64,000 nt of DNA from Escherichia coli (lineage in GTDB: Bacteria > Pseudomonadota > Gammaproteobacteria > Enterobacterales > Enterobacteriaceae): assembly GCF_022846255.1 (NCBI RefSeq), contig NZ_AP025682.1. One strand, written 5' to 3'. The translations under genes and the position numbers were made by a program. Below the pieces are notes generated by a model. It did no database searches. It was not told the origin of the DNA and worked only from the letters and a program-made list of their open reading frames with translations. Positions 9,668-46,015 of the stretch are shown here, piece after piece. Positions within the stretch are counted from its first letter, which is position 1; every line of letters starts with the position of its first letter.

Positions 9668-9744
9668 GTAGGACGGATAAGGCGTTTACGCCGCATCCGG
9701 CAACAGATGCCTGATGCGACGCTACCGCGTCTTATCAGACCTAC
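9668..9744. repeat. REP elements downstream of ybiJ
   Basis: gtaggacggataaggcgtttacgccgcatccggca and gcctgatgcgacgctaccgcgtcttatcagacctac. Confidence 0.85.
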
Positions 9745-28987: not shown

Positions 28988-29977
28988 TTAGCCACCAATG
29001 TACGATAAGTTTTGCGTAATACCGGTGTTATTTTGATGCAGGAAATGGGTCTGTTTTTTCTCCCGCAGCGCCGCTGAAATACGCGCTTCCAGCGCCTGTT
29101 GCTGGGTATCGTCTTCCAGCAGATCGCGCAGGTTAACGCCGCCTTCACCAAACAGGCAGAGATGGAGTTTACCAATGGAGGAAACGCGCAGGCGGTTGCA
29201 AGTGGCGCAGAAGTCTTTTTCATACGGCATGATAAGGCCAATCTCTCCGGCGTAATCCGGATGACAAAAGACTTGCGCGGGACCGTCGCTGCGTTGACGT
29301 AATTGGTGGATCCAGCCGCGACGCAGTAGCTCGTCACGCAGAACCTGACCAGAGATGTGATGCTTACGGAAGAGCTCGCTGCCCTCGCCCGTTTCCATCA
29401 ATTCGATGAAACGCAGCTGGATAGGGCGATGCTGGATCCAGTTCAGAAAGGTGTCGAGCTGATGATGATTAACATCACGCATCAGCACGGTATTGACTTT
29501 GACCTTCTCAAAACCGGCCTCAAATGCAGCATCGATTCCTGCCATGACCTGGTTGAATTTATCCTGCCCGGTAATGGCATGAAACTGGCGAGCGTCAAGG
29601 CTATCAACGCTGACGTTGATGCCAGTAAGTCCAGCATCGCGCCAGTTCGCCACATCGCGTTCCAGACGGTAACCATTGGTGGTGACCGCAATCTGGCGGA
29701 TAGCGTCGTTTTCCCGCACAGCGGCGATGATATCGGTAAAGTCGCGGCGTAAAGATGGCTCACCGCCCGTCAGACGGACTTTTTCGGTGCCAAGACTGGC
29801 GAAGGCGCGCGTAACCCGGCGAATTTCATCGACGGTAAGAAAGCCTTTATTGGTGACGCCGCTCGGTTTGTAGCCATCCGGCAGGCAGTAGGTGCAACGA
29901 AAGTTACACACATCGGTAATCGACAGGCGCAAGTAGTAAAACTTACGCGCAAATGCATCAGTCAGTTGTGAAGCCAT
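28988..29977 (-). CDS. moaA: GTP 3',8-cyclase (radical SAM)
   Basis: ORF track 28988-30058; 329 aa from [31 protein letters not shown] (CxxxCxxC radical SAM motif). Confidence 0.96.
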
Positions 29978-29979
29978 GT

Positions 29980-30125
29980 ACACCTTTCCAGATACGGGAG
30001 GCGAAGTCATTTCTTCCTTCGCCCTGGTGGCAATCTTTACAAGCATTGTCACGGCCAAAGCACCGTATCAGTTGACCCAGGTGCAGAGGCTAGAGTGTTT
30101 AGTGGTTAAGCCGATACTAGCGTGT
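29980..30125 (-). promoter_or_regulatory. moaA 5' leader; expected location of the Moco riboswitch RNA motif
   Basis: Long GC-structured leader directly upstream of moaA; assigned from known biology of the E. coli moaA leader, boundaries approximate and not folded. Confidence 0.5.
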
Positions 30126-41009: not shown

Positions 41010-43271
41010 TTACATCTGACGGTTTTTATTGAAGTTAATCAAACTACCCGCCTTGATAATCTCGCGCTCTTCGGCCGTCAGGCTTTCCATATAGAGCGTG
41101 ATTTCCGTTACCGGCGCATCTTCATGGATCACATAACCTTTAAACGTCGTTCCAGGATTATCCAGCGCCGTTTTAATGCCAGGGATGTAAATGTAATCCC
41201 CCACTTCAAACGTTGGTGCTTCCGCCATTTGCAGCGGTAACATCCCCCAGTTGATGACGTTAGAACGGTAGCGTTTAGTCGCGTATTCCTCGGCAATATT
41301 CGCCAGACCGCCAATCACACGCTGGCAGCTCGCCGCCTGCTCACGCGCAGAACCATCGCCTGGTTTCACCGCATAGACCATGCTGCCAATTTCAGTTTGC
41401 AGCGGATCAATATGCTCCTGACCAGCAATCTGCTTAATGCGCGCAAACACCTCTGTCAGCTCGCTGACATTCCCCGCCAGACGCTGATTTTCCAGCTCAG
41501 CAGTCGCTTTACTTCTGCCAACATAACCGGGATCGCGGCGTGACAGGGTAAACTCCGCCAGACCAATCGGATTTGAACGATAAGAAGAGGTTTCACCGGA
41601 AGGAATCAGTTCGTCGGTGGTGGTGACTTCGTCGAGGATCTTCGAGCACACTTTGAGGACGATATTGTCAGTCAGCGCACCCAATTCCGGCCAGTCTTTG
41701 ATGTTCGGTCCGTAGATCAGCGGTTGCTGGGTCGCCCCTTTCACAAAGCCTTGATAGACGCGATTTTTATACGGCGTTACATCGAAGGCGTACTCCGGCA
41801 CGTTGTCCCAGCAATCGAGTTCGCTGGCAGAGGTTAAATAGCCACCGTTTGCCGCAGTCGCAGCGATAGAACGAGCGTCCATCAACGCCACCGCTGACAT
41901 CTGCCCATTAGCTGGCTTAGAGCCTTCGCGGTTCGGGAAGTTACGCGTGGTGTGGCGAATACTCAAACCGTTGTTGATTGGCGTATCGCCCGCGCCAAAG
42001 CATGGGCCGCAGAACGCGGTTCTGATGATTGCGCCTGCGCCAATCAAATCTGCTACCACACCTTTTTTGGCGAGATCCATAAACACCGGCTGTGATGACG
42101 GGTAAACCGCCAACGAGAAGGTATCGTTGCCGCAGGATTGACCGCGCAGCGCATTCGCCGCCGCGATGACGTTTTCGTAGTTACCGCCAGAACAGCCCGC
42201 GATAATCCCCTGCTGCACTTTCAGGCGACCATTTTCCACTTTATCCAGCAGCGAGAGTTTGGCTTTACCGTGCGCCACGCGTTCGGACTCAATTTCAATC
42301 TCACGCAGAATGTCGGTCAGATTCTGGTTCAGCGTGTCGATTTCATACACGTTGCTCGGGTGGAATGGCAGCGCAATCATTGGTTTGATGGCGCTTAAAT
42401 CAACACTGATGCAGCCATCGTAGTACGCCATTGGTTGAGGGTTAAGTTGGCAGTAATCCTGGCCGCGACCGTGCAGCGCCAGCCAGTTATGGACTTCTTC
42501 ATCGGTTTGCCAGACAGAACTTAAACAGGTCGTTTCAGTGGTCATCACGTCAACGCTGTTGCGGAAATCGGTAGAGAGCGCTGCAACACCGGGACCTACG
42601 AACTCCATCACTTTGTTTTTGACGTAACCGTTTTTGAACACGGCACCGATGATAGCCAGCGCCACATCCTGCGGCCCCACATACGGCGCAGGTTTTCCGG
42701 TCAGATGCACCGCAACCACGCCCGGATAGTCGATATCCCAGGTGTCATTAAGCAGTTGTTTTACCAGCTCGCCGCCGCCCTCACCGACTGCCATTGTCCC
42801 TAATGCGCCGTAACGGGTGTGGCTGTCTGATCCGAGGATCATTTTGCCGCCGCCAGCCATCATTTCACGCATATATTGATGGATGACCGCAATATGCGGT
42901 GGCACAAAAATACCGCCATAACGCTGGGCCGCCGATAAACCAAAAATATGGTCATCACCGTTAATGGTGCCGCCGACGGCGCAGAGTGAGTTATGGCAGT
43001 TGGTCAGCACATACGGCAGCGGGAAACGTTCCATACCGGACGCTTTAGCGGTCTGTACAATACCAACAAAGGTAATATCGTGAGAGGCTAATGAATCAAA
43101 CTTAATTTTAAGTTTATCCATATTACCAGACGTATTATGAGAAGAGAGAATAGACCAGGCAATAGTGCCTTTTTTTGCTTCTTCTTTTTTTATTTCGCCG
43201 GTGAAATGTTCTTCGGCAATTATTTCGTTATTGCTGGCGAGAAACACGCCTTTTTCAGATAACTTGATCAT
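41010..43271 (-). CDS. ybhJ: aconitase-family [4Fe-4S] hydratase YbhJ
   Basis: ORF track 41010-43295; 753 aa from MIKLSEKG; aconitase motifs (SDSHT, AGCSGG, CGPCFG cysteine ligands), C-terminal swivel-like domain. Confidence 0.9.
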
Positions 43272-43338
43272 CAAATGCTCCAGATATCTGCGCACCGTGA
43301 AGTGCGCAGAAAGATAATAAATGGATATACTCTAAATA

Positions 43339-43448
43339 ATTCGAGTTGCAGGAAGGCGACAAGCGAGTGAATCCCCAGGAGCTTACATAAGTAAGTGACT
43401 GGGGTGAGCGAACGCAGACGCAGCACATGCAACTTGAAGTATGACGAG
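43339..43448. repeat. ERIC / IRU element between ybhJ and ybhI
   Basis: Contains both ERIC halves: gtgaatccccaggagcttacat and aagtaagtgactggggtgagcg, then ...cagcacatgcaacttgaagtatgacgag. Confidence 0.9.
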
Positions 43449-43453
43449 TATAT

Positions 43454-44887
43454 TTACAGCATGTTCCAGCCGATCAGCATATTCCACCACCACACGCCGA
43501 GGGTGATATGCACCAGGAAGGTTAATATCGTCAGTACCGCACCGACCAACCACCAGGATTTAATATCGTTGTAACCCACGCCAAAGATGACCGGACCTGC
43601 CGCGCCGCCATAGTGAGTAACCATGCCGCCATAGGAGTTAGAGAACAACAGTGCCAGCGCGGTTAACATTAACGGTGCGCCGGAGACGTTCGCCAGCATG
43701 GCAAACACAGGTAACATAGCAACGATATAGGCACTACCAGAAGCGAAGAAATAACGCACGATGATGCTGAGGAAAATAATAACGAAGAAAGCAACGTTCC
43801 CGTGACCATCAAATGCCAGGTTATTTTTAAAGACTTCAGCTAACCATTCGAAGAATTTAACTTTCGATAATAAGGAGCTTAAGCCGATAATACCGCCGTA
43901 CCAGATTAAGGTATTCCAGCCGCCTTTATTTTTAACCACGTCTTCCCAGGTAACGATACCCAGCAGCAGCATAGTTGCCATAACAACGATTGCCACGGTG
44001 GATTCATCAACCCCCAGAGACTTACTGAAAATCCAGCCCAGCAGCGCCAGCACAAAGACACCGAGCAGCATTTTTTCGCGGATTTTCATCGGTCCCAGTT
44101 CGGCAAGGCCCGCTTTAGCGATGGTTTTGTTATCCACCTTCTTAATTTCTGGTGGATACATGGTGTAAATCACCAGCGGGGTGACCAGCAGCATAATGAT
44201 GCCCGGCAATCCGGCGGCTAGCGCCCATCCACCCCAGCTAATTTGCAGGTGCAGAATGTCGTTGATCATTTTCAGCGCCAGAATGTTCCCCGCCATTGCG
44301 GTAAAGAACATATAGCTGGTGGTTTTAGTGACCATGTAAATGGACATCATCAGGTAATGTCCAACACGACGCGGACTTTTTTCCGGTTCTGATCCCAAAG
44401 CCACTGCCACGCTGTTGATGATCGGTAACACGATGCCGCCCGCACGCGCGGTGTTAGACGGTGTTGCCGGAGCCAGTACCAGATCGAGAAATACCGTAAC
44501 GTAACCCAGACCCAGGGTAGTGCTACCAATTTTACCAATCAGCAGATAGGCAATACGTTTACCTAAGCCTGTGGTTACAAACGCGGCGCTTAAAGTAAAC
44601 GCAGAAAACACCAGCCAGGTGGTACCGGAAGAGTAACCGCTTAATACGGCGGTGGTTTTAAATTCCCCACCTGATAAGTTACCCACCACGACCATCGATG
44701 CGGCGACGGCAATTAACAGTACGACAGGTTCCGGGAAAGGCTTGATAACCAGCCCCACAATGGCCGCCAGGTAAATACCAAAAAGCACCCACGCCAGTTC
44801 GCTTAATCCTGCCGGAGCTGGCATAAAGCCAATAATACATGGGATCGCTAATATCAGAATTAGCTTCCATAACGATTTTTTATTCAT
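43454..44887 (-). CDS. ybhI: DASS-family anion (di/tricarboxylate-type) transporter YbhI
   Basis: 477-aa polytopic membrane ORF of DASS/SLC13-like architecture. Confidence 0.9.
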   Translation of the reverse strand: MNKKSLWKLILILAIPCIIGFMPAPAGLSELAWVLFGIYLAAIVGLVIKPFPEPVVLLIAVAASMVVVGNLSGGEFKTTAVLSGYSSGTTWLVFSAFTLSAAFVTTGLGKRIAYLLIGKIGSTTLGLGYVTVFLDLVLAPATPSNTARAGGIVLPIINSVAVALGSEPEKSPRRVGHYLMMSIYMVTKTTSYMFFTAMAGNILALKMINDILHLQISWGGWALAAGLPGIIMLLVTPLVIYTMYPPEIKKVDNKTIAKAGLAELGPMKIREKMLLGVFVLALLGWIFSKSLGVDESTVAIVVMATMLLLGIVTWEDVVKNKGGWNTLIWYGGIIGLSSLLSKVKFFEWLAEVFKNNLAFDGHGNVAFFVIIFLSIIVRYFFASGSAYIVAMLPVFAMLANVSGAPLMLTALALLFSNSYGGMVTHYGGAAGPVIFGVGYNDIKSWWLVGAVLTILTFLVHITLGVWWWNMLIGWNML

Positions 44888-44962: not shown

Positions 44963-46015
44963 TCAGGGAAGATAAACTTCACCGGAAAATATTTTTCTTG
45001 TCGTCCGAATAACAGATGCGCGTAACGTCGTGGCATCCTGACCTTCATTACTTAAATGAACGTCGAGCGCACCACTGGGGTGTTCAATATTGATATTGCC
45101 GTATCCTACAGAAGGGACGATTTGTCGGGTGACGGTACCTTCCAATGCACAACTACTGGAAATAGCAATAGCACCGGTTATCGCCAAAGCGCGATGGCAA
45201 GAATGCGGCATAAAATAACGCACATTAATTGCCCCGCCTTTCTGCGCTGGAGAAATAAGTACAGGTTTAGGGATAACCATATTACTGACATCGCCTAAGC
45301 CCATTGCTTTACCCGCTTGTAGACGGATAGATTCAATGCGGGCTAATAATGCTTTGTCGGCATCCAGCTCTGCCGGTAATTCATAGCCTGTTTTTCCCAG
45401 ATATTCAGCAGGAATAATGACAACTGGCATCGCCATATCGATACAGGTCACCGGGACATCGTCAAAATAATCAATCTGATTATCCGTCGGGAAGACTTTT
45501 CCGGTTTTCGTTCCGGCGGCATTCAGGAAAGTGAGCGCAACCGGTGCGGCAGTACCCGGTACGCCGTCAATTCTGGCGCTACCCTCGTACTCGACAACAC
45601 CATTTGGCGTTTGCACATCAGCTTCGATAAACGTACCCGTATTGACGTTGCGGATACGTACGCGGGTAACTGGCGAAGTCGCTGCAATCAAACCATTTTC
45701 AATGGCGAATGCCCCAACGCCAGACAGCATATTGCCGCAGTTAGGCGTGGTATCGACACGTTGCTCATGGACGATAACTTGAGCAAACAGATAATCGACA
45801 TCTGCACGCGGATCGCTGGAGCGGCTAATAATGGCGACTTTACTGGTCAGCGGATTACCGCCGCCAATACCGTCAATTTCCAGATCGTTACCGGAACCCA
45901 TAATTGCCATCAATATTTTATCGCGCTGCGTTTGATCTTCGGGTAGATGTTCCGCTAACAGGAACGCGCCCCTCGAGGTTCCACCTCGCATCATCACGCA
46001 GGGTATTTTTTTCAT
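44963..46015 (-). CDS. ybhH: PrpF-family isomerase YbhH
   Basis: 350-aa ORF; PrpF/AcnD-accessory family features. Confidence 0.88.
   Translation of the reverse strand: MKKIPCVMMRGGTSRGAFLLAEHLPEDQTQRDKILMAIMGSGNDLEIDGIGGGNPLTSKVAIISRSSDPRADVDYLFAQVIVHEQRVDTTPNCGNMLSGVGAFAIENGLIAATSPVTRVRIRNVNTGTFIEADVQTPNGVVEYEGSARIDGVPGTAAPVALTFLNAAGTKTGKVFPTDNQIDYFDDVPVTCIDMAMPVVIIPAEYLGKTGYELPAELDADKALLARIESIRLQAGKAMGLGDVSNMVIPKPVLISPAQKGGAINVRYFMPHSCHRALAITGAIAISSSCALEGTVTRQIVPSVGYGNINIEHPSGALDVHLSNEGQDATTLRASVIRTTRKIFSGEVYLP

Follow-up and report, generated by a model that had tools for sequence, protein, structure and literature searches.

The spacer between ybhI and ybhJ in Escherichia coli holds a complete 127-bp ERIC (IRU) element, an old insertion that is now essentially fixed in the species and strongly conserved. 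Its assignment as a complete ERIC/IRU miniature inverted-repeat element is virtually certain, since length, core, terminal inverted repeats (TIRs), TA duplication, dispersed multicopy occurrence and hairpin all fit. The fuller account set out below, in which this complete and long-fixed element would also influence RNA stability and processing between the cistrons, is offered tentatively, at somewhat less than an even chance. Positions refer to the window, the whole 64,000-nt stretch of E. coli DNA that was analysed. ERIC elements have been known since 1990-91 and are a textbook repeat family, and the ybhI-ybhJ copy is also present in K-12. The modest value of the present analysis is that the annotation now describes the whole element, its exact ends and its TA duplication, that the insertion is dated to before the split of E. 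coli and E. albertii, and that the low variability of the entire spacer is demonstrated.

A full-length ERIC element directly downstream of ybhI

On the plus strand of the window the element reads TATACTCTAAATAATTCGAG..., with ybhI and ybhJ transcribed from the opposite strand, and it runs from TATACTC to GAGTATA (43326, 43452), beginning 1 nt past the ybhI stop codon (Table 1). Using the family consensus as query, blastn covered 127/127 nt of the window copy with 0 gaps and 89.8% identity. The central core is an exact 44/44 match to ERIC1R/ERIC2, a match obtained with 0/100 shuffled sequences, and consists of both standard ERIC-PCR primers placed back to back (primer sequences checked in PMC3696847). 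The repeat search delimited the TIR pair as 26-nt arms (43325-43350 and 43428-43453) that are 81% complementary, with the outer 8 bp perfect. Within the window, neither core matching nor consensus blastn detected a second ERIC copy.

These results uphold the initial annotation in placing an ERIC (IRU) in a 182-nt gap between ybhJ and ybhI; the gap corresponds to 43272-43453 and differs from K-12 by one base. The extent of the element needed revision. The range first assigned to it, 43339-43448, falls short of the element, which spans 43326-43452, by 13 nt on the left and 4 nt on the right, and the ends are fixed because alleles with an empty site place them at the duplicated TA. The copy had moreover been described as near-complete, with a short internal stretch apparently missing. 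It is indeed an ERIC copy, and it is a full-length one (127/127 nt): besides the ungapped blastn alignment, it is gap-free in a MAFFT alignment with 78 independent copies, and 52/52 distinct full-length copies are exactly 127 nt long, so that the notion of an internal deletion was wrong. Alignment to the ERIC consensus, which had been proposed as a check, is good over the full length.

Rfam contains no ERIC family, and its nearest model is that of the Vibrio antisense RNA V_AS5 (RF02818). A sub-threshold Rfam match to isrH (17.5 bits) was dismissed, and small ORFs overlapping the element were treated as spurious.

Table 1. Features of the ybhH-ybhI-ybhJ locus, in window coordinates.
Feature	Coordinates	Strand	Basis and remarks
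ybhH ORF	44963-46015	minus	named via matching annotated E. coli genomes and K-12 MG1655
ybhI ORF	43454-44887	minus	named via matching annotated E. coli genomes and K-12 MG1655
ybhI stop codon (TAA)	43454-43456	minus	one base from the ERIC; sequence, ORF list, annotation of matching genomes
Full-length ERIC/IRU element	43326-43452		127 bp including the TA at each end; gap-free consensus alignment
Target-site duplication TA, right copy	43451-43452		empty-site alleles
Right terminal inverted repeat	43428-43452		5' arm on mRNA, 1 nt after the ybhI stop; repeat search
Central inverted-repeat core	43367-43410	plus	44 nt; reverse-complement ERIC1R followed by ERIC2
Left terminal inverted repeat	43326-43350		3' arm on the ybhI/ybhJ mRNA; repeat search
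AAUUA, RAUUW (RNase E-like) motif	43337-43341	minus	motif scan; in the ERIC 3' arm, inside GAAUU (also fits RN|WUU)
Target-site duplication TA, left copy	43326-43327		empty-site alleles
AU-rich single-stranded linker (UCCAUUUAUUAUCUU)	43311-43325	minus	between the ERIC and the downstream hairpin; sequence and predicted folds
Small perfect hairpin (UCUGCGCAC-N6-GUGCGCAGA)	43287-43310	minus	repeat search; 9-bp arms, 100% complementary
ybhJ ribosome-binding site (CUGGAG) and ATG	43269-43283	minus	sequence, K-12 annotation, alignment
ybhJ ORF	41010-43271	minus	named via matching annotated E. coli genomes and K-12 MG1655

Elsewhere in the window, a molybdenum cofactor riboswitch (RF01055) was recorded at 29965-30109 on the minus strand (103.4 bits, full-length model coverage), and naRNA4 (RF02564, a nucleoid-associated noncoding RNA) at 9671-9741 on the plus strand (72.7 bits, above the gathering score).

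Family copies and subfamily

Independent ERIC copies were gathered from metagenome contigs by a core pattern scan, which returned 78 non-redundant copies in 78 distinct flank contexts, and the family consensus was derived from their MAFFT alignment. The core having been used to gather the copies, only the arms test similarity independently. A scan of viral contigs with a 32-nt core recovered just the same host locus and hence zero independent copies. All five of the IMG/VR contigs recovered, although filed as viral, contain the ybhI-ybhJ host locus (L002-L006); the lambda attachment site lies near, between gal and bio, and they are presumably prophage calls with host flank.

Megablast detects ERIC at a median of 5 places per E. 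coli genome, with a maximum of 11. The window copy belongs to an E. coli-type subfamily (GCGACAAGCGAGTG ... GAACGCAGACGCAGCAC) and differs from the cross-genus consensus at 13 positions, and E. coli-type copies at six other loci lie within 3/127 nt of it.

The placement of the element one base after a stop codon was found again at two other loci in the orientation of the ybhI-ybhJ copy. Stop-adjacent copies in the metagenome contigs occur in both orientations, and where the flanking genes are co-directional the orientations number 14 vs 7, which is not significant and gives no bias towards that of the ybhI-ybhJ copy. Several unrelated same-orientation ERICs were seen to start 0-1 nt past the stop of a long ORF, in the form "stop + N + TATAC" (L105, L109/L158, L141, L157); in the opposite orientation, the element's own TAAATAA often provides the stop codon.

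An old insertion at a TA, essentially fixed in E. coli

The distribution of the element was followed by a YbhI scan with one genome per species, which yielded 50 loci. An ERIC occupies the same place in K-12, E. coli E69, E. albertii (127/127 identical to the window) and E. whittamii (124/127). The comparison across strains that the initial annotation had called for found the ERIC with both junctions in 5332/5426 complete E. coli genomes. Two other Escherichia lineages have no ERIC between ybhI and ybhJ and retain both genes and the rest of the spacer (ERIC-less alleles at L008:4400-4480 and L009:4400-4480). No ERIC was found between ybhI and ybhJ in Citrobacter, Klebsiella and other genera, and the two genes are adjacent without it in Citrobacter and other genera.

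The alleles without the element reveal the insertion site. In SCPM-O-B-8794 (L008) and in E. coli GF4-3 the empty site reads TGTAAATATCC, with a single TA, and the filled site reads TGTAAA-TA-[TACTC...GAGTA]-TA-TCC. Judged by this alignment of alleles, the element is inserted at a TA with duplication of the TA target site, since the empty alleles have their single TA exactly where the element has TA...TA. The 45-nt empty-site junction is present in 1/5426 complete genomes labelled E. coli, namely GF4-3 (NZ_CP053258.1 1428825-1428869), and no genome matched a precise-excision junction in E. coli background sequence. The ERIC-less Escherichia sp. MOD1-EC7003 reads TAATTATTTAAAAATATCC at this point, which is similar to the final 14 nt of the element's 3' arm (TTATTTAGAGTATA), and looks like the product of an imprecise deletion that left a 3'-arm remnant of about 13-14 nt.

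In a neighbour-joining tree built from ybhI and the 5' part of ybhJ, E. albertii was basal in 200/200 bootstraps, and both ERIC-less lineages nested inside the ERIC-bearing ones. The simplest history consistent with this tree would be one insertion in an early Escherichia ancestor, followed by two losses. On the same comparison, the insertion predates the split between E. coli and E. albertii and is now essentially fixed in E. coli.

The spacer is conserved within and outside the element

Between the window and E. albertii, 130/478 third-codon positions of ybhI differ, compared with 0/127 positions of the ERIC and 3/51 of the rest of the spacer. Across five ERIC-bearing lineages, third positions of ybhI and ybhJ vary at 371/977 sites (38%), the ERIC at 4/127 (Fisher p = 5e-19 vs third positions) and the unique remainder of the spacer at 3/54 (p = 1e-7 vs third positions), the variability of the entire 182-nt spacer being roughly one tenth that of neighbouring synonymous sites. 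Divergence picks up again directly in the flanks, where the final 150 nt of ybhI have 8/150 differences and the opening 150 nt of ybhJ have 15/150, which makes a recent transfer of the spacer alone unlikely. It is mildly notable that an old insertion should be so strongly conserved next to genes that have drifted.

Three of the four variable ERIC sites form a single cluster in E. whittamii (window 43379-43381; L023:4484-4515), where GCTCC has become GTGAC on the mRNA strand and the central inverted repeat has thereby become perfect. For this three-base change, a single template switch or conversion seems a better account than three separate mutations.

Conservation of this kind could also be had from a passenger: a dead mobile element that plays no part in ybhHIJ expression, kept near-invariant by gene conversion or by a mobility constraint acting on the family. 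The close likeness of the E. coli-type copies at six unrelated loci suggests as much, in that the invariance of the ERIC may be a family-wide property of this sort and not locus-specific selection. In favour of a passenger, too, the element is absent from two Escherichia lineages and from one genome labelled E. coli, all with ybhI, ybhJ and the rest of the spacer kept, and Citrobacter and other genera keep the two genes adjacent without it. Against it, the unique 54 nt of the spacer are equally conserved, and this equal conservation indicates a constraint on the spacer itself. Nor can gene conversion explain an old insertion with intact ends in 98% of E. coli genomes. With both sides weighed, we doubt that the element is a mere relic, while granting that reading an appreciable chance.

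Predicted RNA fold and motifs

The mRNA strand of the element was computed to fold into a long imperfect hairpin (-45 kcal/mol, z = -6.6), and the plus strand into a more stable one (-57.4 kcal/mol, z = -9.5). The family as a whole has 35 consensus pairs that are 97.6% paired across copies, with two-sided changes at 11 pairs, a pattern that fits a hairpin maintained by compensatory changes; the window copy has a U-A variant at pair 6-122. In 52/52 copies (drawn from L057-L176), the orientation corresponding to the window plus strand folds about 11 kcal/mol better than its complement, and the ybhI/ybhJ mRNA therefore has the weaker version of the hairpin.

The spacer mRNA contains a single RAUUW motif, the AAUUA in the 3' arm. 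This is a match at the level of sequence motif, and RAUUW, at 5 nt, is a weak predictor. A RAUUW lies in the same arm and orientation in 50/52 ERIC copies and in the other orientation in 2/52. The motif was thus observed to be almost confined to the weaker-folding strand of the family. When the first 10 nt after the stop codon were kept unpaired in the computation, the mean unpaired probability of the 3' arm rose modestly, from 0.27 to 0.46.

The strand asymmetry bears on whether the palindrome acts as RNA or as DNA. As DNA it might serve for protein binding, cruciform formation or recombination, and the observed covariation of its terminal inverted repeats is what a transposase that recognises them symmetrically would lead one to expect. 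A metagenome contig (L081:9535-9662) also joins two ERIC loci across the repeat, with the left flank of another locus (as in L076) on one side and the ybhI flank on the other; this junction is more likely an assembly chimera via the ERIC than a real recombination between copies. Against action on DNA, no DNA motif other than the TIRs has been reported for ERIC (PMC2229807), and the asymmetry in G-U pairing in 52/52 copies points to a signal at the RNA level. We therefore regard a DNA-level role as very improbable.

The greater stability of the plus strand raises a further possibility, that it is transcribed as an antisense small RNA against ybhI/ybhJ in the manner of Vibrio V_AS5, whose model aligns end to end (1-129) on that strand. 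The score of this alignment, 46.9 bits, falls well below the gathering score of 96 and would merely reflect the likeness of V_AS5 to an ERIC-type repeat, and the scan found no promoter-like site on the plus strand near the element. An antisense RNA appears to us the least credible of the explanations weighed here, with hardly any chance of being right.

Layout of the spacer

The ybhJ ATG lies at 43269-43271 on the minus strand, the K-12 gene being annotated at 803503-805764. Scans of the spacer detected no sigma-70-like promoter on the gene strand and no terminator-like site on either strand within 43272-43453. Without a promoter-like or terminator-like site in the spacer, read-through from ybhI is the simplest expectation.

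The element might instead act as a transcriptional insulator or partial terminator, its hairpin and the U-rich linker stopping or pausing the polymerase after ybhI, so that ybhJ would have its own transcription or a reduced one. In favour of this, UCCAUUUAUUAUCUUU follows a strong hairpin (-45 kcal/mol), and ybhHI has been treated as a gene cluster with ybhJ mentioned separately (PMC9068703). Yet the scan detected no terminator in the spacer, the stem has an AU-rich base, and the U residues of the tail do not form a clean run; moreover, the spacer offers no promoter-like site to drive ybhJ independently, and the ancestral ERIC-less spacer, at just 55 nt, suggests an operon. On balance, termination or insulation at the element seems quite unlikely. 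The YbhD paper and its supplements contain no data on the ybhI/ybhJ junction, and the tiling-array paper makes no mention of the locus.

Between the ERIC and ybhJ lie two features that do not belong to the element. The linker is kept in all Escherichia loci, ERIC-less ones included. The small hairpin, which ends 5 nt upstream of the GGAG in the ybhJ Shine-Dalgarno sequence, likewise occurs in ERIC-less alleles and varies only in its loop within Escherichia, and Citrobacter youngae, C. koseri and others have a hairpin of other sequence at the same position. Its presence in ERIC-less alleles, together with these different-sequence hairpins in Citrobacter, suggests a structurally conserved feature that predates the ERIC. 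Such a hairpin might shield a processed ybhJ message at its 5' end. A 16-nt inverted repeat over the ybhJ start was dropped from consideration, being absent from the predicted minimum-energy fold.

A possible role in ybhHIJ expression

The ybhHIJ genes form a probable, poorly characterised operon. The suggestion made in the initial annotation, that a structured RNA within the operon may uncouple ybhJ from ybhHI, is compatible with the anatomy described above, and we propose, at a confidence distinctly below even, that the ERIC would influence the stability and processing of the RNA between the cistrons. According to this model, the element would most likely be read through within a ybhH-ybhI-ybhJ transcript, in which it would form the long imperfect hairpin. 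A ribosome terminating at the ybhI stop codon would open the base of this hairpin, and RNase E could thereby gain access to the AU-rich 3' arm (GA|AUUAUUUAG) and to the AU-rich linker next to it. The message levels of ybhHI and ybhJ might then be set independently, and the ybhJ part would have the older small hairpin close to its 5' end. Whereas the identity, ends, age, fixation, conservation and fold of the element are results of the analysis, we infer that the genes are co-transcribed, that the RNA is cleaved and that expression is affected in any way.

A further step would be to regard the element as an exapted mobile element that functions as a translation-coupled RNA processing switch and sets the ratio of YbhH and YbhI to YbhJ, a reading that we advance as speculative and think on the whole improbable. 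Under it, natural controls would be at hand in the alleles that lack the ERIC (E. coli GF4-3 and SCPM-O-B-8794, and Escherichia sp. MOD1-EC7003). The locus is also a convenient test case for whether ERICs in E. coli regulate operon mRNA as has been reported in Yersinia.

Comparison with known systems

With the ERIC/IRU family the ybhI-ybhJ copy shares the 127-bp length, the ERIC1R/ERIC2 core, the TIRs and the TA duplication, as well as an intergenic site by the 3' end of a gene, dispersed multicopy occurrence and a long imperfect hairpin. There is no structural difference, and the copy is of the E. coli-type subfamily.

The closest functional precedent comes from Yersinia, where ERICs at gene 3' ends lower the levels of upstream transcripts, according to three reviews, and affect mRNA stability in a manner that depends on their orientation (De Gregorio et al. 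2005, as relayed in reviews). As far as the reviews describe the Yersinia elements, these and the ybhI-ybhJ copy share a position next to a stop codon, a 3' arm whose transcribed strand bears an RNase E-like motif, and a hairpin base that a terminating ribosome can reach. The place of the motif suggests that the ybhI-ybhJ copy may have the orientation described as destabilising. Several observations speak against the proposed mechanism: the ybhI-ybhJ mRNA has the weaker-folding strand of the palindrome, its complement being the better folder in 52/52 copies; copies between co-directional genes show no significant bias towards this orientation; the conservation of the ERIC may be a family-wide property; and the computed unmasking of the 3' arm is modest.

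Among repeats that act through RNA in other bacteria, the Correia/NEMIS elements of Neisseria are similarly small, TA-flanked, inverted-repeat and co-transcribed, with hairpins that are processed by a ribonuclease. They differ from ERIC in their unrelated sequence, in being cleaved by RNase III, not RNase E, and in that they can carry promoters and IHF sites. The Rfam model of V_AS5 has the same core as the ybhI-ybhJ ERIC and aligns to it over its full length, but its internal spacing differs by several indels and, at the score given above, the ybhI-ybhJ ERIC is not a member of that family. ERIC copies have been reported in V. cholerae, the Vibrio copies having eroded TIRs (PMC2267715), and an end-to-end but low-scoring match to V_AS5 fits the presence of such ERIC-like repeats in that species. 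The REP/BIME repeats of E. coli resemble ERIC as intergenic, co-transcribed palindromes, and can stabilise upstream mRNA; in contrast to the ybhI-ybhJ ERIC, with which they share no sequence, REP units are about 35-40 bp long, GC-rich and clustered.
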